A stretch of DNA of 64,000 nucleotides. Source: a virus. Taxonomy: Duplodnaviria > Heunggongvirae > Uroviricota > Caudoviricetes. This document shows positions 9,398 to 60,356 of the stretch, piece by piece; within the stretch, counting starts at the first letter, position 1, and each line of letters starts with the position of its first letter. The stretch is taken from IMG/VR virus record IMGVR_UViG_3300028422_001686; one strand, written 5' to 3'. Position numbers and translations under genes: made by a program. Below the pieces are notes generated by a model. It ran no database searches. It saw nothing but the letters and a program-made list of their open reading frames with translations, and was not told where the DNA came from.

Positions 9398-9413
9398 TTT
9401 TAAGGAGGATTTT

Positions 9414-9809: not shown

Positions 9810-9814
9810 TATTC

Positions 9815-15999: not shown

Positions 16000-16004
16000 T
16001 GTAA

Positions 16005-16128: not shown

Positions 16129-16156
16129 TTTTCATTTTATAAGTTAAGTTTCAATA

Positions 16157-16233: not shown

Positions 16234-16271
16234 TTTTAATAATAATATTTTAATACATTATGGAGGACGAC

Positions 16272-25164: not shown

Positions 25165-25241
25165 GGGGGTGTAGTTAAGTTGGTTATAACGCTACCCTGT
25201 CACGGTAGAGGCCACGGGTTCGAGCCCCGTTACTCCCGCCA
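25165..25241 (+). tRNA. tRNA-Asp (GTC)
   Basis: Acceptor GGGGGTG pairs with TACTCCC. D-arm GTTA...TAAC. Anticodon stem CTACC with loop CTGTCAC. T-arm ACGGG-TTCGAGC-CCCGT. The 3' end is GCCA. Confidence 0.75.
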
Positions 25242-25254
25242 TATTTTTAATAGT

Positions 25255-25331
25255 GTCCTCTTAGCTCAGTTGGTGGTAGCAGCTGACTGTTAATCAGCAG
25301 GCCTTTGGTTCAAATCCAAAAGGGGACGCCA
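25255..25331 (+). tRNA. tRNA-Asn (GTT)
   Basis: Acceptor GTCCTCT pairs with AGGGGAC. Anticodon stem GCTGA with loop CTGTTAA. T-arm TTTGG-TTCAAAT-CCAAA. The 3' end is GCCA. Confidence 0.75.
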
Positions 25332-25335
25332 TTTT

Positions 25336-25421
25336 GCGTAGGTGGCCGAGTGGTTAAAGGCAGCAGACTGTAAATCTGCCCTCTTCGGAGTACGGTGGTT
25401 CAAATCCACCCCTGCGCACCA
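25336..25421 (+). tRNA. tRNA-Tyr (GTA), with long variable arm
   Basis: Acceptor GCGTAGG pairs with CCTGCGC. D-arm GCCGAGTGGTTAAAGGC. Anticodon stem GCAGA with loop CTGTAAA. T-arm GGTGG-TTCAAAT-CCACC. The 3' end is ACCA. Confidence 0.75.
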
Positions 25422-25424
25422 TTT

Positions 25425-25550
25425 AAAGTTGTTATAGGTGAGAACGGACAAAGCCAAGCAACCCGCACCTGAGAAAAGAATGCAACGGCTAGGGAGCCAT
25501 CCTGAAGGCACGGATCATCCGTGAAAAGCTGACAGCCAGGAAAGTACTGG
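25425..25550 (+). ncRNA. candidate structured small RNA between tRNA-Tyr and tRNA-Glu
   Basis: ~130 nt with no ORF. It contains the hairpins AGGTG...CACCT, GGCTAGGGAGCC and CACGGATCATCCGTG. Confidence 0.3.
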
Positions 25551-25556
25551 CAATAT

Positions 25557-25634
25557 GCACCCATCGTCTAATCAGGTTCAGGACACTACCTTTTCACGGT
25601 AGGTATCCGGGTTCAAATCCCGGTGGGTGTACCA
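25557..25634 (+). tRNA. tRNA-Glu (TTC)
   Basis: The sequence aligns arm-for-arm with E. coli tRNA-Glu. Acceptor GCACCCA pairs with TGGGTGT. Anticodon stem CTACC with loop TTTTCAC. T-arm CCGGG-TTCAAAT-CCCGG. The 3' end is ACCA. Confidence 0.75.
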
Positions 25635-25655
25635 TTTTAAATAGAAGATTAGTAT

Positions 25656-25731
25656 CTCCGTATAGCGCAGCTGGTAGCGCACAATTTTTGGGAAGTTGGG
25701 GTCGTAGGTTCAAATCCTACTACGGAGACCA
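25656..25731 (+). tRNA. tRNA-Pro (TGG)
   Basis: Acceptor CTCCGTA pairs with TACGGAG. D-arm GCGC-AGCTGGTA-GCGC. Anticodon stem CAATT with loop TTTGGGA. T-arm GTAGG-TTCAAAT-CCTAC. The 3' end is ACCA. Confidence 0.7.
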
Positions 25732-25740
25732 AATAAAAAA

Positions 25741-25817
25741 GGTAGCTTAACTCAGTTGGTTAGAGTGCTAACCTGATAAGTTAGAAGTCCCAAGTTCAAA
25801 TCTTGGAGTTACCACCA
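25741..25817 (+). tRNA. tRNA-Ile (GAT)
   Basis: Acceptor GGTAGCT pairs with AGTTACC. D-arm ACTC-AGTTGGTTA-GAGT. Anticodon stem CTAAC with loop CTGATAA. T-arm CCAAG-TTCAAAT-CTTGG. The 3' end is ACCA. Confidence 0.75.
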
Positions 25818-25838
25818 TAAATTTTGTAAACAAGTTTT

Positions 25839-25914
25839 GCCTTTACTTGGTAGAGTGACTCAACGGAGCACTGATAAAGCTCAGAGGTTAGGTTAAAATC
25901 CTACAGTAGAGGCA
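25839..25914 (+). tRNA. degenerate tRNA-like element (possible pseudo-tRNA, anticodon-loop-like CTGATAA)
   Basis: Acceptor-like GCCTTTA pairs with TAGAGGC. An anticodon-like hairpin GAGC-(A)CTGATAA-(A)GCTC is present. The T-arm is weak (TAGG-TTAAAAT-CCTA) and there is no regular D-arm or encoded CCA. Confidence 0.3.
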
Positions 25915-26318
25915 ATTTAAGGGTTTCCCTTGCTCAGGAAGCGCGCGAAAACGCACTTAAATAATGAGCTAAAATATAGTGTCACCTACAACGAACTAGA
26001 TAGCGCTAGTCGTGCTTAGTGGTGAGGTTGATAGGCTGCTATCTTCTAATAGATAAAAAGGAGAAAAAATGATAATTATTCATTTTTTAGGGATAATGTG
26101 CATTCTTGTTCTTGTATCTATTTTAATTATGTCATTAGTTGATTTTATAAGGAGGCTTGTATTTGCGGACTATACCAAAAAGAAAACTCCTGTTATTGGT
26201 CGTTCATTTGATCAATTAAAAATTCTGAAAGATCTTGAAGAAACTTATAATAATCATAACCCTAAAACTTGTAGGGTTGATTGTTGTATATTATGTTATT
26301 CAGAGAGAAATGAAAAAA

Positions 26319-26393
26319 GGGCATCTAGCATAACTGGTAGTGCAGCGGAGTCCAAATCCGCGTGTTTGGGTTCAAGTCCTGGGGTGCCCGCCA
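26319..26393 (+). tRNA. tRNA-Trp (CCA)
   Basis: Acceptor GGGCATC pairs with GGTGCCC. D-arm GCAT-AACTGGTA-GTGC. Anticodon stem GCGGA/TCCGC with loop GTCCAAA. T-loop TTCAAGT on a weak, GU-rich T-stem. The 3' end is GCCA. Its layout aligns with E. coli tRNA-Trp. Confidence 0.6.
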
Positions 26394-46670: not shown

Positions 46671-46922
46671 ATGGATATTTTAATGAACCATAATATAGCA
46701 TACCCTTGCTATGTTTTAATTAAAGAAGAGGAAAACACTCTTATAGCAAATAGCGATGGTGTTGGTAAAGTTGCCTTACATCATCCAGATTCCTTTTTAA
46801 AGAAGGGGATGAAGGTTTACTTTAATAATTTAAAAAAAAGTTGTGTTGTCATAAATGGTGAATCATTTTTTGTGTTAAAGCAAGAAGACATCTATTTATA
46901 CGAAGAGGCTGGACATGAGTAA
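46671..46922 (+). CDS. putative co-chaperonin (GroES-like)
   Basis: 83 aa, directly upstream of and overlapping the GroEL-like gene. The segment VLIKEEENTLIANSDGVGKVALHHPD fits a GroES-type beta layout. The assignment rests on position and size. Confidence 0.3.
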   Translation: MDILMNHNIAYPCYVLIKEEENTLIANSDGVGKVALHHPDSFLKKGMKVYFNNLKKSCVVINGESFFVLKQEDIYLYEEAGHE

Positions 46923-48603
46923 GAAAAATGTAAGAACCGCTGAAACAAAAAGTGTTGTATCTCAGGGGCTATGTCTTCTAGAAGATATTGTCTGTGGAAC
47001 AATGGGGCCTGGTGGACGAAATGTTATTCTTGAAAATTCATCTGGCGCACCAGTGATTACAAAAGATGGTGTAACTGTTGCACAATCAGTACCTGACCTT
47101 GAAGACAATGAGTTGAATTTAATTGTTAGAATCATTAAAGAGTCAGCTGAAAAAACAAATAGAGAAGCTGGTGATGGAACTACTACTAGTATTTGTTTAA
47201 CACATGCAATTTATAATGCTGGTGTGGACATTATTGAGTCAAACAAAATAAAAAATGTTAATAAGCTAAAGAAAGAAATCAAGGATGGTGTTGATCTAAT
47301 TATTCAGAGTATTGATAAATACTTTAAAGTCGACATCGCAAACTTGCCTGATGAAGAAAAGAAAAAGTATCTTTATAGCATTGCAAATATCTCTTTAAAC
47401 GGAGATAAAAAGTATGCTTCATTAATTTCAGATGTAGTAGCAAAAGCTGGACTAACCTCAATGATTGCAGTTGAGGACGGTAAAGGGTACACAGATGAGT
47501 TAATTAAGATTGAAGGGATGCAGTTTAATAAAGGTTGGGTTTCACCTTACTTTAAACAGACTGAACAACAAAAAGAGATTTCATTAGATAATCCATATAT
47601 TTTTATGACAACTTTTGATCTCACAAGTACTGGGCAGTTGGGCCTTTTAGAAAAAGCACTTAACCCATTAATTGCTGGTGGCAAACAACTTTTAATCATT
47701 GCTCCAAATGTGAGTGGTGGACTTCTTAATAGTCTGATTGCAAACAATAAACAAAAGAATTTAGTAAACTGTGCTGTATTTGCTCCTTATTATGGGAACG
47801 TAAGAAAAGAGTTTATGCAAGATTTGGCAATTAGTACAGGTGCTACAATTATTGATCAAGCTGAAGGACACTCTCTTTCTAAGGTTGAAGTTAGCCATTT
47901 TGGTAAATGTGAAAGGGCAATTGTAACTGCTACTGGAACGTCAATTATTGGTGGAGCTGGAGATACTTCAAAGGTTAAAGCTAGAATTAACTTCTTAAAA
48001 GAGGAAGCTAAAAAAGTTAACCCCCATAATGACTTAGATAAGGTTCACGAAAGATTGGCTAAAATTGAAGGTGGAGCTTATGTTATACAGCTTGCTAATC
48101 AATCGTATATTGAAGGGTTAGAGCTTAAGCATAGAATTGAGGATGCTGTAAATGCATGTAAAGGTGCTCTTGAGGGTGGTATTGTTGCAGGTGGAGGAGC
48201 TACTTTGTTCGCCGCAGCTAAAACATCATTAGATTGTTCAATTCCTGGTCACCTTATTTTATCTAAAGCTTGTGAAGCCCCGATGGAAAAGATACTCTAT
48301 AATATTGGTGTTGATTTTTCAGATAGAAATGAGTTGTTACAATTCTTTTTAGATAAGCGCATTAGGTCATGGGAAAAAGAAAAAGAGTCTAAGCCTTTTT
48401 CAAGTACTTATACAATTTCCGAAAAGAACGATAAAGGTGTTAAGTTAAATGATGACTGTTTTGCTACAGGTGTTGTAGATCCAGCAAAAGTAACTAAACA
48501 TGCTCTTTCTAATGCAGCTTCAGTTTCAGCTACTTTATTAACTACTAATGGTATTATTTCCTCTATTCCTGAGGTAAATCCAATGCCATTTTCAATGTAT
48601 TAG
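46915..48603 (+). CDS. groL: GroEL-like chaperonin (Cpn60)
   Basis: The N-terminal LLEDIVCGTMGPGGRNVILENSSGAPVITKDGVTVAQSV matches the GroEL signature TLGPKGRNVVL...ITKDGVSVA. Length is 562 aa and the C-terminus ends in MY. Confidence 0.75.
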   Translation: MSKKNVRTAETKSVVSQGLCLLEDIVCGTMGPGGRNVILENSSGAPVITKDGVTVAQSVPDLEDNELNLIVRIIKESAEKTNREAGDGTTTSICLTHAIYNAGVDIIESNKIKNVNKLKKEIKDGVDLIIQSIDKYFKVDIANLPDEEKKKYLYSIANISLNGDKKYASLISDVVAKAGLTSMIAVEDGKGYTDELIKIEGMQFNKGWVSPYFKQTEQQKEISLDNPYIFMTTFDLTSTGQLGLLEKALNPLIAGGKQLLIIAPNVSGGLLNSLIANNKQKNLVNCAVFAPYYGNVRKEFMQDLAISTGATIIDQAEGHSLSKVEVSHFGKCERAIVTATGTSIIGGAGDTSKVKARINFLKEEAKKVNPHNDLDKVHERLAKIEGGAYVIQLANQSYIEGLELKHRIEDAVNACKGALEGGIVAGGGATLFAAAKTSLDCSIPGHLILSKACEAPMEKILYNIGVDFSDRNELLQFFLDKRIRSWEKEKESKPFSSTYTISEKNDKGVKLNDDCFATGVVDPAKVTKHALSNAASVSATLLTTNGIISSIPEVNPMPFSMY

Positions 48604-49357: not shown

Positions 49358-49564
49358 GTGTATAAAATTATTATTCAACATTCAGATGATGATATTAAAG
49401 AGGTTCAATGGGGAAAGGAAGACTTAAAAACTGCTTCTATCCTAATTAGCTTTTATGGATTGAGAATAGATTATTTATTAACACTAGACTCTCATAGATT
49501 AAAAAAAGAGTTAGAGGACAAGGAGCTTCATCATGTCAAATCAATCTCAGGATTTCATATGTAG
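49358..49564 (+). CDS. hypothetical protein
   Basis: 68-aa ORF. Confidence 0.35.
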   Translation: MYKIIIQHSDDDIKEVQWGKEDLKTASILISFYGLRIDYLLTLDSHRLKKELEDKELHHVKSISGFHM

Positions 49565-49751
49565 CTGCTGTAAAAAAGAAGTAGGTGAACTTTATTCAGC
49601 AAGTGAATATAAGGATTTTGAACCTAAAAATACGCCTGAAGAAGAAAAATTAAGACTAAAAAGGAATATTTTTGCTTTAAAAAATGTAGATAAGTGGTTT
49701 TGTCTAACATGTTTTGAAAGTGGAATATCACATACTAGAGTAAAATTTTAG
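49533..49751 (+). CDS. hypothetical Zn-ribbon protein
   Basis: CSCC...CLTC motif. Confidence 0.35.
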   Translation: MSNQSQDFICSCCKKEVGELYSASEYKDFEPKNTPEEEKLRLKRNIFALKNVDKWFCLTCFESGISHTRVKF

Positions 49752-49791
49752 GATAAATGTAAACATTTAGATATTTTTTACTTTTTAGTAT

Positions 49792-50025
49792 TATGTAAAT
49801 TACATTCCCCTGAAACAGGGTAAGTGATTCCTTCAGGAATGCTTGTACGGGTATCACTAATCGATCACCCTCCCCAGCATTCCACCAGGAATCACATCCC
49901 CTCCCGTCTATAGACGGGAAGGTTTCAGGGGATAGTAATTTACCAGGTGGCCAGATCCAAAACCGGTACCCGAGACGGATACCTGCTGGCCGCCTGACCC
50001 TTTTAGGGTTAATAGAAACTGGAGT
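49792..50025 (+). ncRNA. GC-rich, highly structured non-coding element (candidate ncRNA or cis-regulatory leader)
   Basis: A 10-bp long-range helix CCCCTGAAAC...GTTTCAGGGG encloses two ATTCC-N4-GGAAT hairpins and a CCCGTC-TATA-GACGGG hairpin. An 11-bp helix CAGGTGGCCAG/CTGGCCGCCTG follows. There is no ORF and GC content is well above the flanks. Confidence 0.4.
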
Positions 50026-50030
50026 TTTTT

Positions 50031-50228
50031 ATGATAAGGATGTTTAATATTCTTCTTGGAAAAGTATTCAATAAGTATTGTGATTCTAACATGATAGGGC
50101 TATGTCATGAGTGTTTTGCTATACTTAAAGACAACAATGTTGCATATTGTAATTTATGTAAAAAACACGTTTATAAATATCGTCTTATAGTTAAAACTAT
50201 TATTAAGGGAATCTTTTATGACAAATAA
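50031..50228 (+). CDS. hypothetical Cys-rich protein
   Basis: 65-aa ORF. Confidence 0.35.
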   Translation: MIRMFNILLGKVFNKYCDSNMIGLCHECFAILKDNNVAYCNLCKKHVYKYRLIVKTIIKGIFYDK

Positions 50229-50469
50229 AATTTCTGTTTGTGCAGATGGGGTAAAAGTAAAATATGAAATAATCGGCGGGAAAGAAGTTCCTGTTTTTAT
50301 TATTCCTCCTGGAATGTCTAGTTTGAGTCCAGAGCAATTAAAAGAGATGGAAGAAATAGATAACCGAGTTATTAAGAAAAAAGAAAAAGAAGAGGAAAGA
50401 ACTATTCCTGATGAAGATGATTTTGAAGGTTGGCAAGATTATGAGCCAGAGGATTATCAATGGGACTAA
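50218..50469 (+). CDS. hypothetical acidic protein
   Basis: 83-aa ORF. Confidence 0.4.
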   Translation: MTNKISVCADGVKVKYEIIGGKEVPVFIIPPGMSSLSPEQLKEMEEIDNRVIKKKEKEEERTIPDEDDFEGWQDYEPEDYQWD

Positions 50470-51104
50470 AGCATTTAGACATTTTTGTAATTGGTGATTG
50501 TCATTTTGGACATGAAGCCATTATCGATTATGCAAATAGACCCTTTATTAACCTAAAAGAAATGCATGATGTTTTAATTTATCAGTGGAATAAAAAGGTA
50601 AAGAAAGATGATATTGTTTTTATTTTAGGTGATCACGCTTTTTCTTATTTAAAGAAAACGGAAATAAAAGAAATTAATAGCAAATTAAATGGTAAAAAGA
50701 TCCTTGTAAAGGGGAATCATGACAAAGTGAGCGGCATAGTTAATGCTATTAATCAAGGATATGATTTAGTGGTAAATGAAGTATGCCTAGCTTATGGTGG
50801 AATTAATTTTAGATTGTCTCACTTCCCTAAAAGGTCGTTTTGGTATCAAATTAAGACTTCCATTAAATCCCTGTTATTTCCTAAAAAATTTAGAAGAGAG
50901 TATTATCTAGCAGATAAATTTCATGATAAAAGACCTCAATATTGGGACGGCAATAAGTGGGTTATTCATGCACATACACATTCTAAAAATAAAATTAATG
51001 TAGACTTAAGATCTGTATGTGTTTCAGTGGAAGCATGGGACTATTCGCCAACTAATATGAATGAAGTTGTTAGTTTAATAAAAGAAAATAGTAAGTCAAA
51101 ATAG
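50460..51104 (+). CDS. metallophosphoesterase (second copy)
   Basis: The four metallophosphatase motifs are present: VIGDCHFGH, ILGDHAF, GNHDK and AHTHS. Confidence 0.65.
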   Translation: MGLKHLDIFVIGDCHFGHEAIIDYANRPFINLKEMHDVLIYQWNKKVKKDDIVFILGDHAFSYLKKTEIKEINSKLNGKKILVKGNHDKVSGIVNAINQGYDLVVNEVCLAYGGINFRLSHFPKRSFWYQIKTSIKSLLFPKKFRREYYLADKFHDKRPQYWDGNKWVIHAHTHSKNKINVDLRSVCVSVEAWDYSPTNMNEVVSLIKENSKSK

Positions 51105-51142
51105 AGGGTGACTTACTAGTTTTATATATCAAAGGAGAATTT

Positions 51143-51511
51143 ATGGAAAGTAGAAGTAAAATTAAAACAGGCGATGTTTATCAAATTCGCAAAAGCGGAA
51201 GAAACTACATTGCTATCGGTAAAGCAAAAGACAATGCAGGAAATGTTTACATTTGTTCTGTGTTAAATGGAAATGTTAATCCAGATGGAACTATGAAAGT
51301 TTATACAAACAGAAAGCCATCTATTCATTTTCATAAAGCACGTAATGTGTATCGTGTTCATTCTACACGTGAAGTTGATTACGGGACTTTTGTAAGTGCA
51401 AATCCAAAGATGGTTAAGTTGGTACGTCCTATGGCTCAAAATACTGGCGTAGAGATTGTTTCACCAAACATTCCATATCAATTGAAAAATCTATTTAAAA
51501 TTGTAAGCTAG
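51143..51511 (+). CDS. hypothetical protein
   Basis: RBS AAGGAGAA upstream of a 122-aa ORF. Confidence 0.45.
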   Translation: MESRSKIKTGDVYQIRKSGRNYIAIGKAKDNAGNVYICSVLNGNVNPDGTMKVYTNRKPSIHFHKARNVYRVHSTREVDYGTFVSANPKMVKLVRPMAQNTGVEIVSPNIPYQLKNLFKIVS

Positions 51512-51553
51512 TTGTTTCAACTATCTATAATTAAGTAGATTTTATTATTTCTT

Positions 51554-51900
51554 TTACCAGCTAACTTTCAGGGACCAGGAATCCTTTCAGATCATGATTG
51601 TGAACAATCTCTCCTGAATGAATCCCAGGACCCTTCAGTAGCTGGTAAAAATTGTAAACTTGGTCAGGAGGAGGTAACTCCTCCTGAAAAAGTTTTTTTC
51701 TATTTTAAAAAAAATCTGTAGTTATATTTAATGACAGTAAGAAGTATCTTCTTATTTTTAAATACTTACTACTGTCAAACATGTTAACGTAAACATCTCA
51801 TCCTTCACTAATCGTTCGGAAGGAGATGTTAACGTTTACATGTTTGGATCCTTCAGGATGTCTTCAGTCATCCTGGAGGATCACCCCTTGGGGTGATTAT
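51554..51900 (+). other. ~350-bp non-coding region packed with long inverted repeats and hairpins
   Basis: Five elements are present. First, a perfect 10-bp outer stem TTACCAGCTA/TAGCTGGTAA (51554 and 51639) enclosing repeated GGACC-N-TTCAG units. Second, the hairpin CAGGAGGA-GGTAAC-TCCTCCTG (51665-51686). Third, an imperfect hairpin at 51735-51774. Fourth, a 22-bp inverted repeat (20 of 22 paired) AACATGTTAACGTAAACATCTC...GAGATGTTAACGTTTACATGTT (51778-51844). Fifth, the hairpins GGATCCTTCAGGATG...CATCCTGGAGGATC and ATCACCCC/GGGGTGAT (51846-51899). Confidence 0.5.
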
Positions 51901-51958
51901 AATTAGTTATTTTATGACACAATGTTGTGTCTATATTTGTTGCTATAAGGAGGAAACT

Positions 51959-52132
51959 ATGGCACGTGTACTTTATTTTGAAGGTCAAGAACTTCCACTA
52001 CAAGACGGTATGACTATTGATGAAGCTAAAGAATGGGCTCAGGTAGTATTTCCAGGTCTTGAATCTGCTGAAGGCTATGAAGATGAAGACGGAAACTACG
52101 TCTTCACAAAGAAAGCCGGAACTAAAGGGTAG
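51959..52132 (+). CDS. small protein ending in Gly; candidate ubiquitin-like (beta-grasp) protein
   Basis: 57 aa, ending in the C-terminal residues ...KKAGTKG. The strong RBS AAGGAGGAAACT lies just upstream of the ATG. It is the first gene downstream of the structured region and upstream of the E2/JAB/E1 genes. It is absent from the ORF track at this start. Confidence 0.35.
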   Translation: MARVLYFEGQELPLQDGMTIDEAKEWAQVVFPGLESAEGYEDEDGNYVFTKKAGTKG

Positions 52133-52207
52133 TTAATACCCTTAGACATTTATTTACTTTATAGCCTTTTGTATTAAAGGATTTTAAATTATTAATTAGG
52201 AGGGACT

Positions 52208-52483
52208 ATGTCATTAGGTCTAACTTTATTTAATTCATTAAAAGAGAGTAAGGAGCTAGAAAACATTATCCCTCTAGAGTACTCAAAAGTAGTGGCAGAT
52301 CTGGCCGATGTGTCAGACTGCCAACAACTAGAAAAATTAATGGGTGAAATAACCCTATTCGATATAATCGATAAATATAAAGATAGTGAATCATCTCTAG
52401 TCTTTCAAAAGAAAAGAATGAGAGACATCTATCATAGGCTGCTAAGGCTTGAAGCCGTTCCAGGAATCTGTAATTTTATATAA
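52208..52483 (+). CDS. hypothetical protein
   Basis: RBS AGGAGGGA upstream of a 91-aa ORF. Confidence 0.45.
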   Translation: MSLGLTLFNSLKESKELENIIPLEYSKVVADLADVSDCQQLEKLMGEITLFDIIDKYKDSESSLVFQKKRMRDIYHRLLRLEAVPGICNFI

Positions 52484-52495
52484 TAGGAGAATAAT

Positions 52496-53278
52496 ATGTT
52501 AAATAACGTTTTGAGTAAAGATGTACAAAATAAATTGTTAATCTCTTATTATTATTCATTTGGAAGATCGCTAGGTTTGTTATCTGCAAAAAGAGGAATA
52601 AAAAGCGATGCTTTATGGAAAATCATTAAAGCTTTAATGAATAAAGCTTTGCCCTTTATTCCTGTATCTAAAGAAAGAAACTCTGATTGTATGTTAATAT
52701 CCATACAGAAAGGTCTAACTGGATACATGGTCTCATTAAGAGCTATGATAAGAAATTTAATTTCACAAAGAGATCCTACTTATTGGAGGAGTGAGGATAG
52801 AACTCTACCAAATAAAAGCCACATGATTACTGGCCCAGATAAGCTTCATGTATTAAGTAAAAAACTTCTTAAGTTCATGTATGGTGATGATTACAAGAAA
52901 CATTTTCCAACTCTTATCATCCCTAACTTTTTAACTCAGACGGAGACATGGACTTCTGCTCTTCGAGCTGATTTTGTAAATGTATATAAGGTTCTTAATG
53001 AACCATGCATTAAGGGCTTACAAAAGATAAATACAGATGAAATGAAACAAAATCTGAATGTAGGAATAAAAAAAGCCTATATTTCAATGATTCGGCATTC
53101 GTTACTTCAAGCATTAAGGCATGATACTCATGCAGTAATAAAGGATGCTAATAATAATTTTAAAAATGTTACTGAAACTACAGCTGAATTAGCAGAGGAT
53201 GGTGAAGGAAAGGTTAGTGCTTTTCCCAATCAACTAAGATCTAGCTATTACCTATATACAGACAGGAGTACAACATGA
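52496..53278 (+). CDS. hypothetical protein (upstream member of the E2-JAB-E1 operon)
   Basis: 260-aa ORF, translationally coupled to the E2-like gene. Confidence 0.45.
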   Translation: MLNNVLSKDVQNKLLISYYYSFGRSLGLLSAKRGIKSDALWKIIKALMNKALPFIPVSKERNSDCMLISIQKGLTGYMVSLRAMIRNLISQRDPTYWRSEDRTLPNKSHMITGPDKLHVLSKKLLKFMYGDDYKKHFPTLIIPNFLTQTETWTSALRADFVNVYKVLNEPCIKGLQKINTDEMKQNLNVGIKKAYISMIRHSLLQALRHDTHAVIKDANNNFKNVTETTAELAEDGEGKVSAFPNQLRSSYYLYTDRSTT

Positions 53279-54009
53279 GTTTATGCAATATTGAAATAAA
53301 TGAAAGCTCAGCAATCTTAACATATAAAGAGCACCATAGAATGGCTGCTGTAACTTCTAAGTCAATTGACATTGCTGATTTAGGTAAGGTTCTGGCGGCT
53401 AATGTTGAGATGGATAGTGGACTTATTTATACTCCTCCAACCATGCAAATTAAGAGGTATATGAAGAAAGGTTCTTCAGAAATGGTTTTAATTGAAGAAG
53501 CTCCAAGAAAACGAAAAATAAAGCATTACGACTGTGGCGAGCTTGAAATTATGCTTCCTAGACTAGTCTATGGAATCCTACATAACTCTCAATTGTCTGG
53601 AAGATCTGCCTTGAACATGAGAATTGGAACGGTTAAGGGTCCTATAATAACTGGTAAAGAGCCAATTTACCGGTTCTTTTTTCCAAATGTATATGATACT
53701 GGAACTATTTGTTGGGGTTATTCAAGAGATAGAAATGAGGATTCCTTAAATTCTATTACTTATGCTTTAGCTTTGATTGAATCTTTTTGGGGTGGGGTAT
53801 CTAATAATGATTTATATAGATCTCCATTGGCAGATACAGATAGAATAAAAAGTGACAAGTTAGGTCTTGATTATTGTGACAAGTATTTAAAATATATTGC
53901 GACACTAGATCAGTATCCAGAGGAGTTTATTCATTCTCCTCTAAGTTCAAAAGTTGGATTTTCAGTAAACAATTTCTGTAGCCTAGTGTTAGGAAACTCG
54001 GGAGAATAG
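53275..54009 (+). CDS. E2-like (UBC-fold) ubiquitin-conjugating-enzyme homolog
   Basis: FFPNVYDTGTICWGY resembles the UBC active-site motif HPN-x(5-8)-G-x-IC, with a candidate catalytic Cys. Gene order matches Bil-like operons. Confidence 0.5.
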   Translation: MSLCNIEINESSAILTYKEHHRMAAVTSKSIDIADLGKVLAANVEMDSGLIYTPPTMQIKRYMKKGSSEMVLIEEAPRKRKIKHYDCGELEIMLPRLVYGILHNSQLSGRSALNMRIGTVKGPIITGKEPIYRFFFPNVYDTGTICWGYSRDRNEDSLNSITYALALIESFWGGVSNNDLYRSPLADTDRIKSDKLGLDYCDKYLKYIATLDQYPEEFIHSPLSSKVGFSVNNFCSLVLGNSGE

Positions 54010-54011
54010 TC

Positions 54012-55064
54012 ATGGGAAAAAAAGAAGATTTTTTAAAGTCAGTTATAAACTACCATTGTGGTGAATCAAAAGATACAGTTATTAATCCATTCTTTAATTA
54101 TATAGTTCAATCTGACGGTGACTACTATGTAGAAAAGAATTCAATTGGAACTTTTGTTGCGAAAGTTCTTGAAGTAAAAGATGGTGAAAAATTACGCCCA
54201 GGCCTTCCTGTAGAATACAAGGGGTCCTTTGTAGATTTTTCTCTTCCTAAAATTCCTGAAGATATTTTTTATCAAATTTTAGGCTTTTTTCAAGCTATTG
54301 CTCACGATATGGGTGATTCAGAAGCCTTTATACAAATTTATTATGACAAAACTAATAATGAATATCAGGTTGTAGTACCCAAGCAAACAGTATCTAAAGC
54401 TTCTGTAAACTATGATAGAGACAAGGATTTACATATTTTATATCCTTCTCGATATATTCTAGTTATGGATATCCACAGCCATAATAGTATGCCTGCTTTC
54501 TTTTCTGGAACTGATAATAGAGATGAAAAGTGTACAAGGTTTTATGGTGTTTTAGGTAAGGTTTGCAGTGATCAAATTGAAGAAAAATATAGATTTGTTT
54601 TAAAAGGAAGAGAAGTTCTTTTAAATAGATCTGACATTTTTGATGTTAAAGAAAAAACTGCTGTATTTCCCACTAATTGGAAAGATTCAATAAGTAAGTA
54701 TACCCAGCCCGCTGTGACAGCTGGTCCAACTCGTTATCCAGGAACATACAACTTTCCTACTACAGGAAGAGAAACATTTGACGACCTTAATGATTATTGG
54801 CCAAATGACAGTCTAGTTAACCCTAATACTGGGGAGCTAAGTTCGTATGATGGATATAATGATAGTTATGATTCATCGAATATGAAGTATTATGAAGGTA
54901 GTGATCAAATTGTAGACATGATCAAATATACAAATAACGATAATTGGACAGATCGTGATTATAGAAAAGTAATTTCAAATATCTTCTCATATTATTATGA
55001 GGAAGCCCCTGATGTTTTTCACGAATATATGGAAGTTTATTGTGAAGAACCTGACGGAGAATAG
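54012..55064 (+). CDS. JAB/MPN (JAMM) metallopeptidase, deubiquitinase-like
   Basis: HSHNSMPAFFSGTD matches the JAMM motif H-x-H-x7-S-x2-D exactly. Confidence 0.65.
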   Translation: MGKKEDFLKSVINYHCGESKDTVINPFFNYIVQSDGDYYVEKNSIGTFVAKVLEVKDGEKLRPGLPVEYKGSFVDFSLPKIPEDIFYQILGFFQAIAHDMGDSEAFIQIYYDKTNNEYQVVVPKQTVSKASVNYDRDKDLHILYPSRYILVMDIHSHNSMPAFFSGTDNRDEKCTRFYGVLGKVCSDQIEEKYRFVLKGREVLLNRSDIFDVKEKTAVFPTNWKDSISKYTQPAVTAGPTRYPGTYNFPTTGRETFDDLNDYWPNDSLVNPNTGELSSYDGYNDSYDSSNMKYYEGSDQIVDMIKYTNNDNWTDRDYRKVISNIFSYYYEEAPDVFHEYMEVYCEEPDGE

Positions 55065-55076
55065 AAAGAGGTAAAA

Positions 55077-55943
55077 ATGCAAGAGTTAAGTTCAAAAATA
55101 GAGGTAACTGTGGCTAGACCCGTTGCTCCTGAAGTTAAAATACCTGTTAAACCTTCTACTTCTACTGTTGCTGTGGCTCCTATAAGAACAAAACTAGGAG
55201 AGTCTTTAGGCTATGATAGAGAAGAAGATGGGATGCCTGCTCTAACAGTTTTTGTTGTTGGTTTAGGCGGGACAGGGGGATATGTTTTACGAGATCTGGC
55301 TCGATATGCTTACTATCTTAGAGTAAGTAAGAAAGCCGAACTCAATATCGTTCTTTATGATGGTGATACAGTAGAAGAAAAGAATCTTTTAAGACAGAAC
55401 TTTATCACTAGCGATCAAGGCAAGTATAAGGCTGAGGTTTTAGCAAAAAGATATTCTGCAGCTTTTGGTGTAGATATAAAGTTTGTAAATGAATACTTGT
55501 CTACTAAAAATATGGTTTCTCTTAATTATGGTAGATCCATTATAATTTCTTGTACTGACAGTAATGATGCTAGAAGGTTAATTCATAATGAAATTCTCCG
55601 CTCTAGAGTTGGACTTGTCTCTTGGATAGATTCTGGAAATGAAAAACGTAGTGGTCAAGTTATTCTTGGGGAAAAGAATAGAGGTTATTCTGGCTTCCAG
55701 ACATTTAAGTCTTGTATCGAGCTCTTTCCTGAACTAGCTGATCCTGCTAACGATCCGGTAGATACTCGTTCTTGTGCAGATGTTGGAATTGATGAATCAC
55801 AGAATTTATTTATCAATTCTATGGCAGCCATGATGGTAATGAATTTTGTTAGAGTTTTAGTTGAGAATGAATGGACCAATTTAAATGGTGTTTCTTTTGG
55901 GATTAATGGTGTTTCAACGCCAATTTTTATAGATAATAAGTAA
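55077..55943 (+). CDS. E1-like ubiquitin-activating enzyme homolog (ThiF/MoeB family)
   Basis: VVGLGGTGGYV is the GxGxxG nucleotide loop. YDGDTVEEKNLLRQNF is the D-x-D...NL-x-RQ motif. SCTDSNDARRL is the E1/MoeB C-x-D-N...R active-site region. Confidence 0.7.
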   Translation: MQELSSKIEVTVARPVAPEVKIPVKPSTSTVAVAPIRTKLGESLGYDREEDGMPALTVFVVGLGGTGGYVLRDLARYAYYLRVSKKAELNIVLYDGDTVEEKNLLRQNFITSDQGKYKAEVLAKRYSAAFGVDIKFVNEYLSTKNMVSLNYGRSIIISCTDSNDARRLIHNEILRSRVGLVSWIDSGNEKRSGQVILGEKNRGYSGFQTFKSCIELFPELADPANDPVDTRSCADVGIDESQNLFINSMAAMMVMNFVRVLVENEWTNLNGVSFGINGVSTPIFIDNK

Positions 55944-55956
55944 GGTGGAGTTTCGT

Positions 55957-56535
55957 ATGTCATATATAAGGCCTTTAGTTTTTGAAGACCCTTTAGAGTC
56001 TGAGACAAGAAATGATATTTCTATCCTAGAAAATCTTGGTGATGAATCATTTCTTTATGATATTTTTTATGACAGTAGGATTGGCGGGGTATGTCATCAC
56101 TATGCCTTTAATGGATTTAATGTTGGAATCTATTTTAGATCTAATGGAGTTATATGGACAAATGCAGTTTGTTTTTTTGATAGAAATTATTATTATCTAG
56201 GAATGAATGCGGATGGGACACTGAATACTTCACCAGTTAGTCGTTATGGAATACCATCAAGATTACATCTGACTTTACTTGTAGATGGAGATCCAGTAGA
56301 GTTTTTTCAAAATCAAAACTGTACTGTTCACTTCTTGCCTGGATCCTATAATTTAGATTTTTTAAAAAATTATACAGAAGAAACTGACCTAGACCTTGAA
56401 GAAGAGGATAGAGTTTCAGCAGAAAAGAAACTTCAATCATCTCTCTTGGCTTATTTTTTAAATATAGCTGAATATTTTGGTGGAGTTATCGATGGGCAAG
56501 ATGTATCGGATTCAGACAACCTCACAGAGTTTTAA
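55957..56535 (+). CDS. hypothetical protein between the E1-like gene and the RT
   Basis: ATG at 55957 preceded by AAGGTGGAG. About 192 aa. Its end overlaps the RT start. Confidence 0.45.
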   Translation: MSYIRPLVFEDPLESETRNDISILENLGDESFLYDIFYDSRIGGVCHHYAFNGFNVGIYFRSNGVIWTNAVCFFDRNYYYLGMNADGTLNTSPVSRYGIPSRLHLTLLVDGDPVEFFQNQNCTVHFLPGSYNLDFLKNYTEETDLDLEEEDRVSAEKKLQSSLLAYFLNIAEYFGGVIDGQDVSDSDNLTEF

Positions 56536-57367
56536 TAATTGTTTTTATATTAAAAGTACTGTTTTAAAAAAGAATGGTAAAAATAGAGTTATCTATGCCC
56601 CTTCTGATAAATTAAAAGAGTATCAAAAAGAAATTTCTAACATTCTTGAAAGTGGTTTTTCTGACATCTTAAATAGTAGTCATATAATGGGATTTGTTAA
56701 ACAAAAATCTATTGTCGATAATGCAACTAAGCATTTAGGTAAAGATTGGGTCATTAATATCGATATTAAAGATTTTTTTCCTAATATAAAAGGTCAGTAT
56801 GTTTATGATCTTATCTCTAAGAGGTCTATTATCTTTTCAGACTTTATATCTAAGTATAATAGCAGCTTGATAGATGTAGTAAGACTTTTAACATTAAAGG
56901 ACAAATTAATTCAGGGAAGCCCAGCTAGTCCTATAGTGGCAAATTTAATCGGTGCTGCGATGATTGACAATAAGGTTAAAGACTTTTTAGATTGCTATGC
57001 GCTTGATGATTTAGATTATACTCGTTATGCGGATGATCTTACAATCTCTTTCAATTCTGAGTTGAAAAAGCATGAACTAAAAGATATAATACACTCTTTA
57101 AAAAAAAGTTTAGACCCTTTTCAGTTCACAAAGAAAAAGACGATTATAAGTTCTAGATACGATAGACAAGAGGTGACTGGTATTACAGTAAATAATACTA
57201 GATGCAATCTTGGAAGAGAAAAAAGAAATTCTTTAAGAGGTTGGATTCATTCGGTTATTCAGAGTGGTAGATCAATTAAAGATGATCAAAGATTAATGGG
57301 ACACTTGTCTTATTTAAGATATGTTAATCCCGAAAGTTATAATAGATTAATAAAGAAATACAGTTAA
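56492..57367 (+). CDS. reverse transcriptase, retron-type (RT domain only)
   Basis: RT motifs occur in order: RVIYAPSDKLKEYQK (1), DIKDFFPNI (2/A), LIQGSPASPIVANL (4/B'), YTRYADDLTISF (5/C, YADD) and RQEVTGITVNN (the VTG motif typical of retron RTs). There is no maturase or endonuclease domain. Confidence 0.65.
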   Translation: MGKMYRIQTTSQSFNNCFYIKSTVLKKNGKNRVIYAPSDKLKEYQKEISNILESGFSDILNSSHIMGFVKQKSIVDNATKHLGKDWVINIDIKDFFPNIKGQYVYDLISKRSIIFSDFISKYNSSLIDVVRLLTLKDKLIQGSPASPIVANLIGAAMIDNKVKDFLDCYALDDLDYTRYADDLTISFNSELKKHELKDIIHSLKKSLDPFQFTKKKTIISSRYDRQEVTGITVNNTRCNLGREKRNSLRGWIHSVIQSGRSIKDDQRLMGHLSYLRYVNPESYNRLIKKYS

Positions 57368-57377
57368 GGAGTATTTT

Positions 57378-57704
57378 ATGCAAGTTACAGATGCAAGTTT
57401 TTTTCCAGTTAATAATGGCCCAACAGTTGCTTTGGGGCAAGTTATTTTAGATAAAGTCTTGAAGCTTAATGTAAAGATCATGAATGGTAAAAATGGTCTC
57501 TGGGTTGCTTTCCCTTCAAAATTAAGTCAAAAAGATAATAAATATTATTCGGATTTTAATTTTATTGATAAAGATGCACATGCTGATTTTTCTACAGCTG
57601 TTCTATCTGCTTATCATACAACTAATTCTCAAGGAAATGGTAGTCCTTTAAGTAGAAACAGTAACTCTGAAGCAGAGATTATGCAGGATGACTTACCATT
57701 TTAA
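57378..57704 (+). CDS. spoVG: SpoVG-like nucleic-acid-binding protein
   Basis: MQVTDASFFPVNNGPTVALGQVILDKVLKLNVKIMNGKNGLWVAFPSKLSQKDNKYYSDFNFIDKDAHADFSTAVLSAYH is collinear with B. subtilis SpoVG ([33 protein letters not shown].EY). Confidence 0.6.
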   Translation: MQVTDASFFPVNNGPTVALGQVILDKVLKLNVKIMNGKNGLWVAFPSKLSQKDNKYYSDFNFIDKDAHADFSTAVLSAYHTTNSQGNGSPLSRNSNSEAEIMQDDLPF

Positions 57705-57724
57705 GCTTCACTTTTTAGAGACCT

Positions 57725-57860
57725 AGTAGAACATTATAAAAACTACTAGATGTTCGCTTTAATGTAACCGCCAAAACCGAAAGGCTTTGGCGTTCCGTTT
57801 GATCTGAAGGCATTACAGTCAAAGCAGGATTCCTGCCTACTCTATTTTGGGTAGGCAGGA
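57725..57860 (+). other. hairpin-rich non-coding segment downstream of the RT/SpoVG genes
   Basis: The helices are CTAGTAG...CTACTAG, CGCCAAA-N10-TTTGGCG and a perfect 9-bp CCTGCCTAC...GTAGGCAGG. Confidence 0.35.
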
Positions 57861-58020
57861 CAAATGGAAGAATGAAGGGGTGATAAGATGACAATAGAAA
57901 AAAAGTTTAAAGAACCTGAACAATTAGTTTTATGGGACTTTAAAAATAACGATGATAAAGATAGAATTAGAGGTCTTAATACTAATGGCATTCTTTATGA
58001 TGACCAATGGTTAGGAACTA

Positions 58021-58341
58021 ATGATGACAAAGAAAAAGACAGGGCCGAAGAAGTTTACAGTTAATGATAAGCGTTTAAGGCATGGGGCAGAGATTAAGGA
58101 TATGCTTTATTACTGCTCAAATTATAAGTGTGTTGCAGAATTAATTAAATGGGATCCTGTCTCTGAGTTTTTTACTTTAAGACCAATTCCTTTAAGTATG
58201 GAAGAAGAAAAGTCTTTACCTAAGTTAATAAAGACTAGAGATGAATTTACATTTAGGCCTTGGTGTATAAAAAATAAAGAAAGAAAAAGATATAAAGAGT
58301 TTATACGTCTAAGAAATATTCTGAAGAGATGCGTCGCTTAG
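58021..58341 (+). CDS. hypothetical basic protein
   Basis: 106-aa ORF. An overlapping 59-aa ORF starting at 57888 has a better RBS (GAAGGGGTG) and may be the real gene instead. Confidence 0.35.
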   Translation: MMTKKKTGPKKFTVNDKRLRHGAEIKDMLYYCSNYKCVAELIKWDPVSEFFTLRPIPLSMEEEKSLPKLIKTRDEFTFRPWCIKNKERKRYKEFIRLRNILKRCVA

Positions 58342-58870
58342 CTTCAGCCTTTATATCCTTTGCTCCACTTTTAGTAATTCTACCATGATCTAGAATATGT
58401 CTGAGAGATAATCTCATTAACTCTATGTCATAGTAAAAAGATTTCAGTGGTAAGCTTAGACCAAGATAGTCTGCTAATTCAATAGAGTATTTTATGGCCT
58501 GTTCTTCTACATAGATAATAACGTCTTTACATACAGAAGGACATGGTTCACTTAAATTATCTTCGGGATAGTACTCATAAGCAGCCGTTTCTATTTCTGG
58601 CTCGCCCCGTTTAATAAAGTCTATATGATGTCCAAGCTCATGTAGTAGGGCAAAAATTGTTTTTAATGTAGAAAGGTTTTTAGCCACTCTGATAATAGGA
58701 CTTGATACGACGTTTTTACTTAGATAGTATGCTTCAAAATTATCTTCAGGAGTAACATTAATAAACTGAATATCAATGTTGAGAATTTCTTCTCCATATT
58801 TAATAATTTTTAGTAATTGATTGAGTTGTTTCTTAGGGTATCTTTCAAGGTCCTTTTTTGTTAAATTCAT
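58301..58870 (-). CDS. ImmA/IrrE-family HExxH metallopeptidase (the only minus-strand gene)
   Basis: FALLHELGHHIDF contains the HExxH motif in an ImmA/IrrE-like context. It lies on the minus strand, convergent with the upstream operon. The RBS GGAGGGAGG is visible in the reverse complement. Confidence 0.55.
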   Translation of the reverse strand: MNLTKKDLERYPKKQLNQLLKIIKYGEEILNIDIQFINVTPEDNFEAYYLSKNVVSSPIIRVAKNLSTLKTIFALLHELGHHIDFIKRGEPEIETAAYEYYPEDNLSEPCPSVCKDVIIYVEEQAIKYSIELADYLGLSLPLKSFYYDIELMRLSLRHILDHGRITKSGAKDIKAEAKRRISSEYFLDV

Positions 58871-58974
58871 TATATCCTCCCTCCTCTGACACCTATATAA
58901 TATCCTATTTTTTAGAAAATAAGTACTATGCTTTTCAGTAAAAGATTGATAATATAGTTCGATTAAAAGGGGAG

Positions 58975-59364
58975 TTGTCTATGTTGCACACATCTCAAAT
59001 GTCTGAAATTATTAAAGAATCAGTTTCTGCTATTATGACAAATAGCCGAAATAACTTTGATGCTATCTTGATGTTAAGTCAGCTTCTAATGAAGGTTGGA
59101 CAACGCATAAGTAAGATAAAAATAGATTTAGACACAGCAGATTATAAAGAATTAAATAAAATATATTATTTAGGTGATGGTTCTGATGCCGGACTTGGAC
59201 TTATTCTTAATGGAGTAAGTTTAATGTCTGCCTTACCAGATACCTATTTAGATTCAATAGAAGGAGAACAAAATGCTTTATCCATGTCCAGTAAGATTTC
59301 ACAAGAGAACAGTACAGCTTCAGTTGTCACTAAGTCTTCCAAGGCTAGAAGACGGAAGAACTAA
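58975..59364 (+). CDS. hypothetical protein
   Basis: RBS AAGGGGAG upstream of a 129-aa ORF. Confidence 0.45.
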   Translation: MSMLHTSQMSEIIKESVSAIMTNSRNNFDAILMLSQLLMKVGQRISKIKIDLDTADYKELNKIYYLGDGSDAGLGLILNGVSLMSALPDTYLDSIEGEQNALSMSSKISQENSTASVVTKSSKARRRKN

Positions 59365-59419: not shown

Positions 59420-59725
59420 ATGGATTGGGACAATAAACTAGTTATGAAGCTAGGTTTGCCTGATCTAGTAGAGATTTTAGTTAAATTAAAAACTAAAGCT
59501 TTTCCAGCTAAGCTATTTCACAAAATTGATAATGGCCCATCCTCTACGTTGGAAGTTTCTGAAGGAAACAAAGCTGGAACTTATAGATGGTTCGTATCAA
59601 AAGACGGATCTTCTATGCCAATTTTCTTAGATGCAAAAGATATGTATCTAATTAGTGTATTACTTGAAAATGCTATTTCAGTAACTCAAGCTTGGGTTCC
59701 GGTAGCAAAGCCAAGGAATGCATAA
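59420..59725 (+). CDS. hypothetical protein
   Basis: Internal ATG (MDWDNK...) of the 59273 ORF. The start is uncertain. Confidence 0.35.
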   Translation: MDWDNKLVMKLGLPDLVEILVKLKTKAFPAKLFHKIDNGPSSTLEVSEGNKAGTYRWFVSKDGSSMPIFLDAKDMYLISVLLENAISVTQAWVPVAKPRNA

Positions 59726-59741
59726 AATGAAAGGAGAACAA

Positions 59742-60356
59742 ATGGAAGAGATTGCTGCGGCTGCGGAAGGAATGTTGCCTGCAAACTACCTACAAGGGTT
59801 TGACTTGTTTGGTGGTGGAACAGAGACAAAAACACGAAGCCTTATTGTTACTGGTGAGGTTGGAGAGTCTTTGGTGTCTAGCATAACTAAGAATTTATTA
59901 TCTCTTAGTGCTGAAGACCCTGAGATTCCAATTACTATGTACATCAACACCTATGGTGGATCTGCTTATGACATGTTTGCGATTTATGATGTAATGAATT
60001 TTGTAGAAACTCCAATTTATACAGTTGGATATGGTAAGGTAATGTCTGCCGGAGTTCTCCTTTTAGCTGCTGGAGAGCCAGGCCATAGATTTTTAACCCC
60101 CAATGCTAGTGTAATGATACACAGAATGAAGGGTGGAGTTTATGGTGGTGTCGCAGATTGGGAGTCAGAAAAAGAACATTTTGCTGACTTAGAAAAAAGA
60201 ATGGCCGCTCTCTTAAAAAGTCATTCTAAGCTTACTCAAGCGCAACTTAAAAGCTATTTAGATAATCAAAACATTTATTTAAATGCTAAAGATGCTAAAA
60301 AGTATGGTATTGTTGACCACGTTAAAGGTACAATGCCAAAGATCCTTAAAGGATAA
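59742..60356 (+). CDS. ClpP-like serine protease (S14 fold), possible prohead protease
   Basis: YINTYGGSAYDMFAIYDVMNFVETPIYTVGYGKVMSAGVLLLAAGEPGHRFLTPNASVMIHR aligns with the ClpP core (INSPGG...GxAASMG...R...P...MIHQ), including the active-site Ser. RBS AAAGGAG. Confidence 0.6.
   Translation: MEEIAAAAEGMLPANYLQGFDLFGGGTETKTRSLIVTGEVGESLVSSITKNLLSLSAEDPEIPITMYINTYGGSAYDMFAIYDVMNFVETPIYTVGYGKVMSAGVLLLAAGEPGHRFLTPNASVMIHRMKGGVYGGVADWESEKEHFADLEKRMAALLKSHSKLTQAQLKSYLDNQNIYLNAKDAKKYGIVDHVKGTMPKILKG

Follow-up and report, generated by a model that had tools for sequence, protein, structure and literature searches.

We analysed a 64-kb stretch of phage DNA (64,000 nucleotides; Caudoviricetes, IMG/VR record IMGVR_UViG_3300028422_001686), which is referred to below as the window. 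It has a GC content of ~32%, and nearly all of its genes lie on the plus strand. The region of interest is bounded by the genes for a Cpn60 chaperonin (46915-48603) and for ClpP (59718-60356), and holds an operon for a ubiquitin-like (Ubl) protein with E2-, JAB- and E1-like companions, followed by a reverse transcriptase (RT) gene and a gene for a SpoVG-fold protein. Bacteria are known to use retrons as defences against phages, and retrons also serve as tools for genome editing. We conclude with high confidence that the open reading frame (ORF) at 56492-57367 of this phage encodes a genuine retron-clade RT, and that it is part of a conserved Ubl cassette. The RT and the product of the gene behind it are described as follows.

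56492-57367, plus strand: retron-clade reverse transcriptase, RT domain only, 291 aa (Pfam, PADLOC, NCBIfam, alignment to a solved structure, neighbour-joining tree)
57378-57704, plus strand: 108-aa protein with a SpoVG fold, then a low-complexity linker, ending in the SSB-type tip DDLPF (Pfam SpoVG, 1.1e-9)

The reverse transcriptase and its SpoVG-fold partner

The start of the RT is best placed at the ATG at 56492, behind the ribosome-binding site (RBS) GGTGGAG (56479-56485), and the stop codon is at 57365-57367. The protein matched the Pfam RVT_1 family (8.9e-19), and all 25 of the RT matches listed by PADLOC were to retron RT models, headed by RT_XIII (2.6e-53) and RT_II-A (1.2e-52). Retron models of NCBIfam gave 186.9 bits (retron_St85_RT, below its cutoff of 235), 159 bits (Ec67) and 146 bits (retron-TIR), while the non-retron models gave 57 bits (group II, TIGR04416; cutoff 300), 26 bits (AbiA) and 23.5 bits (Drt3a). 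The closest solved structure was the RT of retron Ec86 (E = 3.6e-34), with an alignment that extended over residues 23-288; group II RTs in the PDB matched the palm only (residues 79-205, E = 1e-5). In the Ec86 alignment, NATKHLG, TRYADDLT and RQEVTGITV of the window RT were paired with NATPHIG, an identical TRYADDLT and QRKVTGLVI, respectively, and residues N77, H81, Y179-A-D-D182 and V228-T-G230 were invariant in the 42 members of the closest family. The NAxxH and VTG regions contact msr/msd in retron structures. Both regions have been described as characteristic of retron RTs (PMC7736814).

A preliminary description of this DNA had read the ORF as a retron-type RT with YADD and VTG motifs, comprising the RT domain alone in ~290 aa. 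The profiles, the Ec86 alignment and the invariance across 42 members bear this out, as does the length of the protein. The VTG region, which was to be checked for a failure to align with retron RTs, aligned with that of the Ec86 RT, and when compared with retron, group II, Abi and DRT models the protein fell within the retrons. The alternative raised at that time, a UG/DRT-like lineage, found no such agreement, since the Drt3a and AbiA scores stand against 187 bits for the retron profile.

Three other identities were considered and rejected. Against a UG/DRT or Abi lineage stands the lead of the retron profiles and the Ec86 sequence, which exceeds 100 bits over the Abi, DRT and group II models alike. 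The idea of a degenerate group II maturase was rejected on its score of 57 bits against a cutoff of 300, the palm-only PDB match and the lack of a match to an Rfam intron, and an inactive RT on the invariance of the catalytic YADD motif; judged by this motif, the enzyme looks active. No retron type stands out, because the RT scored almost equally on many type models: PADLOC scores ran from 180 to 164 bits over nine models that represent seven types (XIII, II-A, XI, III-A, XII, X and I-C). The system belongs to none of the 13 described retron types.

The protein encoded directly behind the RT matched the Pfam SpoVG family PF04026 over residues 1-80 (38.7 bits, cutoff 29.6), and its score on the NCBIfam SpoVG model (34.5 bits) was below the cutoff of 108. 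SpoVG proteins bind DNA and RNA. The sequence terminates in ...EIMQDDLPF after the low-complexity linker, and an end in PF was seen in 17 of 17 aligned orthologs and in further database members, mostly as DD[IL]PF. In each of the 13 RT-bearing loci that were scanned, this was the only ORF ending in such a tip, and across the 244 loci fetched the SpoVG-like protein was confined to those with cassette RTs. The SpoVG-like gene thus appears to be a fixed partner of the RT. The C-terminal hexapeptide of bacterial SSB (the protein that binds single-stranded DNA), DDDIPF, is a conserved docking motif for many proteins of DNA metabolism (PMC5872125, PMC3632105). The pairing of an RT with a predicted nucleic-acid binder that carries an SSB-type tip is the strongest functional clue in the locus. 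In the literature searched, SpoVG and retrons were not mentioned together in any paper.

The ubiquitin-like cassette

The genes that precede the RT, from the Ubl gene onwards, are listed below.

51959-52132, plus strand: Ubl, ubiquitin-like protein, 57 aa, ending in AGTKG (homologs in 12 cassettes)
52208-52483, plus strand: pA, small conserved cassette protein, 91 aa, ending in NFI (same position in 12 cassettes)
52496-53278, plus strand: pB, cassette protein, 260 aa (position conserved; 196-420 aa in relatives)
53275-54009, plus strand: E2-like protein, Prok-E2_D/PRTRC_B-like (Pfam Prok-E2_D, 1.8e-4, below cutoff)
54012-55064, plus strand: JAB/JAMM peptidase with an N-terminal domain, PRTRC protein A-like (TIGR03735, Pfam Prok-JAB)
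55077-55943, plus strand: E1-like ThiF-family adenylyltransferase, PRTRC ThiF-like (Pfam ThiF, 7.7e-21)
55957-56535, plus strand: pC, 192-aa ORFan between E1 and RT (RBS AAGGTGGAG, then ATG 55957; database match only to itself, P0121)

Homologs of the Ubl protein (56-74 aa, 43-60% identity by tblastn) ended in AGxKG in 12 of 12 cassettes, some with an extra L. Relatives of pA are ~90 aa long and have a hydrophobic C-terminus, mostly DF[ILF]; neither pA nor pB gave a family match in profile searches that included Pfam and NCBIfam. The JAB protein carries the motif HSHN...S..D..DE, which was invariant in 13 sequences (relatives of ~350-510 aa), and scored 52 bits on TIGR03735 (4.7e-14; cutoff 101.8) and 1.3e-4 on Pfam Prok-JAB. 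E1 reached 140 bits on TIGR03736, whose cutoff is 144.75, and the E2 ortholog of contig L185 reached 25.5 bits on TIGR03737, PRTRC_B (7e-6; cutoff 131). On these profile scores, E1, JAB and E2 appear to be closest to the PRTRC system, related but diverged. No match to ParB was obtained among the nine cassette proteins with Pfam and NCBIfam. PRTRC-like Ubl cassettes occur widely, on plasmids and conjugative elements as well as on phages.

The order Ubl-pA-pB-E2-JAB-E1-variable pC-RT-SpoVG was found between Cpn60 and ClpP in at least ~20 large-phage contigs (the window, L001-L008, L021, L057, L146, L168-L174 and L184-L187), with a few small genes separating Cpn60 from Ubl in the related contigs. 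The closest RT homologs, with 35-41% identity, were on phage-like contigs of 10-205 kb that had this same gene order. We built a neighbour-joining tree of the 156 retron-type RTs from all fetched loci, which is rough and carries no support values; 18 of the 19 cassette-linked RTs formed one clade with no non-cassette RT inside, the exception being that of the high-GC contig L045. All cassette-clade RTs with readable context adjoin a Ubl cassette, including that of contig L090, in which the RT lies upstream of the cassette and accompanies E2 and JAB in another gene arrangement. The RT lineage is distinct and, in the loci analysed, was seen only on large phage-like contigs. The preliminary description had suggested that the RT was recruited into the Ubl operon, and both the conserved synteny and the largely monophyletic RT clade agree with this. 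The Ubl cassette also occurs without the RT, in 61 loci made up of four large phage contigs (L175, L178-L180) and 57 bacterial-genome loci, mostly metagenome-assembled genomes of Clostridia. On this evidence the RT appears to be an accessory of particular lineages, dependent on the Ubl module or at any rate travelling with it, and the converse is not true.

A nucleotide search with 51000-59000 against 50,697 deposited phage genomes returned no match, and single-protein scans of IMG/VR and GTDB genomes returned no close relative of the window phage. Entries with 100% identity were found for pC and the SpoVG-like protein (P0121 and P0129), both from a 188-kb metagenomic contig. The large protein search gave no self entry for the window RT, and the best identity of 41% may omit self. 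Close relatives of the window phage are absent from the collections searched, and the missing RT entry leaves this conclusion unchanged. In a metagenome scan with the RT alignment, the matches listed were mostly bacterial retrons, and the useful ones were L090 and L146 only.

Several other genes were also recorded. The only minus-strand gene of the region (58301-58870) codes for a 189-aa product that contains HELGHH and weakly matches IrrE/Peptidase_M78 (E = 5e-4), which is reminiscent of ImmA/IrrE-type regulators. Elsewhere the window carries a phage-encoded transfer-messenger RNA (tmRNA) at 13692-14212 (94 bits) and eight tRNA genes (20332-20408; 25165-26393), seven of them clustered, both of which are typical of very large phages. 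On L090, split Ro60/TROVE-vWA genes and ~1.4 kb of non-coding DNA packed with 3' halves of tRNA-like type (400-4365) lie directly upstream of the cassette-clade RT, and the Ubl cassette comes after the RT. The RT-less cassette of L175, a 316-kb phage contig, has a GHKL/MutL-like ATPase gene (3336-4724) immediately upstream of Ubl. A different retron-like RT (~8000-8800) was present on large phage contigs that have no Ubl cassette (L012, L029, L030, L049, L051 and L052); in L012, L029 and L030, ORFs of ~380 aa and 425-513 aa lie upstream of this RT, and an overlapping ORF of 150-180 aa follows it.

Non-coding elements and the candidate template

The DNA between E1 and the RT is occupied by pC, which starts 13 nucleotides (nt) past the E1 stop (E1 ends at 55943) and shares 44 nt with the beginning of the RT gene. 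A base-composition estimate puts the probability of so long an open frame in DNA of 32% GC at ~2e-7, and the pC slot is filled in nearly all cassettes, by a protein of 107-146 aa or by an HNH-like ORF; the latter is seen in L021 and L146, where an HNH-nuclease-like sequence pattern was read by eye from the sequence. When profiles of the window pC and of the pC proteins from other cassettes were compared with each other, no homology was detectable (hhalign probability 3.7%). No non-coding spacer was found directly 5' of the RT, and because this region is coding, a template RNA directly upstream of the RT is excluded. The preliminary description was correct in stating that there is no adjacent upstream msr/msd and that E1 leaves no spacer before the ORF that follows it. 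Its premise that a retron RT as a rule lies directly downstream of its non-coding RNA (ncRNA) was too strong, as in several retron types the ncRNA is placed before the effector gene instead. Of more distant sites it had named two structured non-coding elements, and both exist.

57708-57883, plus strand: candidate RT template RNA, 176 nt, with a closing stem and three hairpins (putative assignment)
51552-51896, plus strand: hyper-structured leader upstream of Ubl, rival template candidate (folding z score -11.4 over 51512-51960)

The element 3' of the SpoVG gene (57700-57895 region; z score -4.6 to -4.9) has a closing stem of 9 bp formed by UCACUUUUU (57708-57716) and AAGGGGUGA (57875-57883), which encloses hairpins at 57723-57749, 57769-57792 and 57793-57868, the last being 76 nt long with an inner stem at 57831-57860. 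No T-run terminator was found after it. As folded here, 57708-57883 would match a retron ncRNA in size and outline.

The window and 13 distinct related loci each have a non-coding gap past the SpoVG gene, with lengths of 96-359 nt. In group 1 (L002, L008 and L168-L174), the SpoVG gene is followed by an 85-nt element that is 74-81% conserved and forms three helices, in which 93% of the alignment cells were paired and 7 of the 15 pairs were changed on both sides; none of 500 shuffles was as good, and sliding the partners by 1-3 columns lowered the paired cells to 35-47%. This element remains constant beside the SpoVG gene though the next gene varies, and in L008 a separate hairpin with a T-run, reading as a terminator, lies beyond it. 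In group 2 (L005 and L184-L187), the slot holds a conserved hairpin, GGGAAYACC...GGTGACC; its alignment cells were paired in 98% of cases, and 6 of its 12 pairs showed double changes. Because the slot is structured in most relatives and covaries in two lineages, the element 3' of the SpoVG gene is a better candidate than the leader at 51552-51896. We therefore take 57708-57883 as the leading candidate for the template, although we judge this assignment less likely than not to be correct.

A number of observations weigh against a template at this site. A k-mer search for a sequence motif across the post-SpoVG elements of the different lineages gave AT-rich words only. The group 1 covariance model (R1), run with filters off, recovered only its five training sequences and L170, which is identical to one of them; the model is too narrow to be informative. 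In the window, three of the nine pairs of the closing stem are G-U, the stem overlaps the RBS of the next gene, and both strands of the element fold equally well. The Rfam search of 49500-58300, at the gathering score and at permissive E-values, gave chance-level matches to miRNAs and sRNAs and no msr. The slot is occupied by a tmRNA in L021 and L146, and in L057 there is no gap behind the SpoVG gene. With a length of only 85 nt, the group 1 element lacks a long msd-like hairpin, and the window element is without comparative support because the window phage has no close relative in the collections searched. The suggestion in the preliminary description that the template is displaced gains from the structured slot found in most relatives and loses from the lack of an Rfam msr match. 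The a1/a2-type flanking repeats proposed there gave a similarly divided result: the 3' element has its 9-bp closing stem, but 5'/3' pairing of the gaps, measured as duplex energy, was no better than in shuffled sequences for most loci, the window included, and the leader had no such repeat.

Other structured RNAs were observed in the window and in related contigs. The most structured intergenic region of the window is 49752-50030 (z score of about -9 to -11), which consists of a 22-bp outer stem around a three-way junction, a hairpin at 49944-49996 and a small hairpin before the ORF at 50031. Two hairpins, at 49817-49902 in this region and at 51776-51846 in the leader, have unrelated stems and the same 12-nt apical loop, CACTAATCG[AT]TC. 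The loop has only two exact copies in the 64 kb, which flank a three-gene block just upstream of the Ubl operon; no copy was found in the 181 loci searched, and there was no Rfam match. With its shared loop, the pair looks more like a repeated hairpin for protein binding or processing than like an msd. Further stable intergenic structures lie at 3890-4040 (z score -7.1) and 16000-16259 (z score -5.2; both by mononucleotide shuffles).

In two phage sub-lineages, a conserved ncRNA of ~170 nt lies a few genes upstream of Ubl (L002 2208-2378, L008 2114-2279, L169 1400-1569, L171 1013-1178 and L004 1851-2008). It has covarying hairpins and long invariant blocks such as CACTAGAGAGATTGCTCCCCGCCAGAGAGAACTC, is followed by a terminator in four group 1 loci, and is neither in Rfam nor in the window. 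It was rejected as a general partner of the RT, as the covariance model R2 matched L004 (E = 3e-9) and not the window. In L021 and L146 the tmRNA gene (9412-9817 and 9519-9972, respectively) comes directly after the SpoVG-like gene, starting 50-73 nt past it. The same two contigs have a gap of 240-350 nt between E1 and the HNH-like pC gene, and in this gap, just upstream of the HNH-like ORF and the RT, lies a tRNA-like 3' end, GGTTCGATTCC...ACCA (~7300-7345 in L021, ~7310-7345 in L146), which neither ARAGORN nor Rfam calls as a tRNA.

A proposed mechanism, its alternatives and related systems

The best explanation of the locus as a whole, which we regard as plausible though somewhat short of probable, is that a retron-clade RT was added to the 3' end of a PRTRC-like Ubl operon, together with a SpoVG partner and a 3' template. 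Starting from the RT family, the gene order, the SSB-type tail and the covarying slot in sister lineages, all of which were observed, we infer a template, an RT-DNA and a function in the following way. The operon transcript would run through the RT and the SpoVG-like gene into 57708-57883, which would serve the RT in cis as a primer-template, in the way that msr/msd serves retron RTs. Here the role of a1/a2 would fall to the closing stem, that of msr to the two short hairpins and that of msd to the long hairpin, and the product would be a small RT-DNA. The SpoVG-like protein could then bind the single-stranded product, with its SSB tip engaging or sequestering host proteins that dock on SSB. 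Such a module, placed beside a Ubl conjugation module, might serve host takeover or counter-defence. We consider this functional model unlikely to be correct in all its steps, and offer it as a speculation.

The structured slot after the SpoVG gene may instead be a regulatory or processing signal, such as a 3' stabiliser, an RNase III site, an autoregulatory site for SpoVG or the 5' untranslated region (UTR) of the next gene. This would fit an element that is AT-rich and lineage-specific, as UTR elements often are, in a window where other intergenic regions (3890-4040 and 16000-16259) are structured as well, and in which the RBS of the ORF at 57888-58064 is partly covered by the 3' arm of the closing stem. 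However, the group 1 element keeps its place beside the SpoVG gene where the gene downstream is a different one, lies before an apparent terminator in L008, and combines 74-81% identity with compensatory changes. We judge a purely regulatory role to be somewhat unlikely. If the template were the leader at the head of the operon, with 51776-51846 as the msd, the layout would be that of retrons in which the ncRNA comes before the accessory genes and the RT. The leader stands immediately 5' of the RT-containing operon, and is among the two most structured non-coding stretches of the 64-kb window (z score -8.3 by mononucleotide shuffles, second to 49752-50030). Its hairpins comprise a long one at 51552-51650 (98 nt) and others at 51732-51777, 51776-51846, 51847-51882 and 51884-51896, of which 51776-51846 is a long hairpin with 24-nt arms that are 92% complementary. 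What makes the leader an improbable template is that it is not positionally conserved, the spacer before Ubl in related cassettes being only 30-144 nt; that it has a terminator-like hairpin with a T-run inside (51664-51687); that the hairpin with the same loop at 49817-49902 lies outside the operon, which points to a hairpin family with another role; and that neither an a1/a2-type flanking repeat nor a match to Rfam or to the covariance models was found for it. An RT without a dedicated msr/msd, which would copy the tmRNA, a tRNA-like element or an mRNA 3' end, or would synthesise DNA without a fixed template, seems very improbable to us: the RT keeps the retron-specific NAxxH and VTG regions (PMC7736814), the tmRNA of the window is 43 kb away, and Rfam does not call the tRNA-like ends tRNAs. 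The contigs that would favour it are L021 and L146, with a tmRNA close behind the SpoVG gene and the GGTTCGATTCC...ACCA end upstream of the RT, and L057, which has no non-coding gap near the RT; in addition, no ncRNA is conserved across the lineages.

A different question is whether the RT acts with the Ubl operon at all. The RT, the SpoVG-like gene and pC could be a self-contained retron-like module that stands beside the Ubl operon through phage synteny only. The RT is dispensable for the Ubl cassette because the cassette occurs without it in 61 loci (L175, L178-L180 and the 57 bacterial-genome loci), which counts for such a self-contained module and against the best explanation above, and in L021 and L146 the gap of 240-350 nt separates E1 from the block of HNH-like pC, RT and SpoVG gene. 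Against such independence, which we think unlikely, all clade RTs of known context adjoin the cassette, even L090 with its different order; in L057 the E1 ORF is longer (388 aa) and there is no separate pC between E1 and the RT; and in the window the genes from E1 through the SpoVG gene overlap or abut. The exclusive co-occurrence suggests that the RT is coupled to Ubl conjugation. A bolder form of the 3'-template explanation would have large lytic phages use the RT offensively, with an inverted retron layout, an SSB mimic that hijacks the host SSB interactome, and a coupling to Ubl in which the RT-DNA/SSB module is either a signal or scaffold or a target. We rate this offensive use as quite unlikely, on a par with the functional model.

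The window RT resembles Ec86 (Retron-Eco1) and other bacterial retrons in belonging to the same RT family and in being a small RT-only protein with a tightly linked accessory gene. Unlike them, it lies on a large phage-like genome and not in a bacterial defence island, has no upstream msr/msd, and has as partners a SpoVG-fold protein with an SSB tail and the Ubl/E2/JAB/E1 operon. Neither 'ThiF' nor 'ubiquitin' occurs in the classification of retrons into 13 types (PMC7736814), and a SpoVG-like protein with a Ubl cassette is not among the effectors of those types. The operon shares with PRTRC/Prok-E2_D Ubl operons the E1, JAB and E2 profile matches and carriage on mobile elements; it differs in that all scores were below the curated cutoffs, no ParB-related gene was seen, and the phage version adds pA and pB and, in one lineage, pC, the RT and the SpoVG-like gene. 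The SpoVG-like protein is likened to bacterial SSB by its predicted nucleic-acid-binding fold, its low-complexity linker and its acidic [IL]PF tip (PMC5872125), whereas its binding domain would be a SpoVG fold and not an OB fold. With Bil, CBASS Cap2/Cap3 and other Ubl defence systems the locus has in common the E1/E2/JAB/Ubl logic and weak PADLOC matches to an E1-E2 fusion and BilD. These matches are weak (E = 3.6e-8 or worse) and partial, however, and the window system is phage-encoded, with separate E1 and E2 and no CD-NTase.

A phage-borne retron-like RT is not new in itself, because cultured jumbo phages carry distant retron-like RTs in other contexts. The RTs of Listeria phage LPJP1, Staphylococcus phage Madawaska and vB_SauM-UFV_DC4 share 27-30% identity with that of the window, but they are ~450-500 aa long, have a non-coding gap of 0.5-1.2 kb upstream and fall outside the cassette clade; the records of these phages gave no JAB match, and there was no Ubl, E1 or SpoVG annotation among the RT neighbours. 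In the literature searched for retrons together with ubiquitin-like, ThiF, JAB, SpoVG or Prok-E2 proteins, no paper describing the association was found. What appears to be new is that a largely monophyletic RT clade borne by phages is combined with a PRTRC-like Ubl operon and with a SpoVG protein that carries an SSB tip, in the absence of an upstream ncRNA.

If the template truly lies 3' of the operon, the rules for finding retron ncRNAs would have to be widened, and the locus could yield compact new pairs of RT and ncRNA for the production of DNA in cells. The SpoVG protein with its SSB tip provides a simple testable prediction of host-factor hijacking. The RT clade is apparently restricted to large phages, always beside the Ubl operon and together with a mimic of the SSB tail, and if this is true it would place reverse transcription on the phage side of the arms race and provide a first functional handle on PRTRC-like Ubl cassettes. 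Should the offensive use of the RT prove correct, reverse transcription and ubiquitin-like modification would be linked for the first time.

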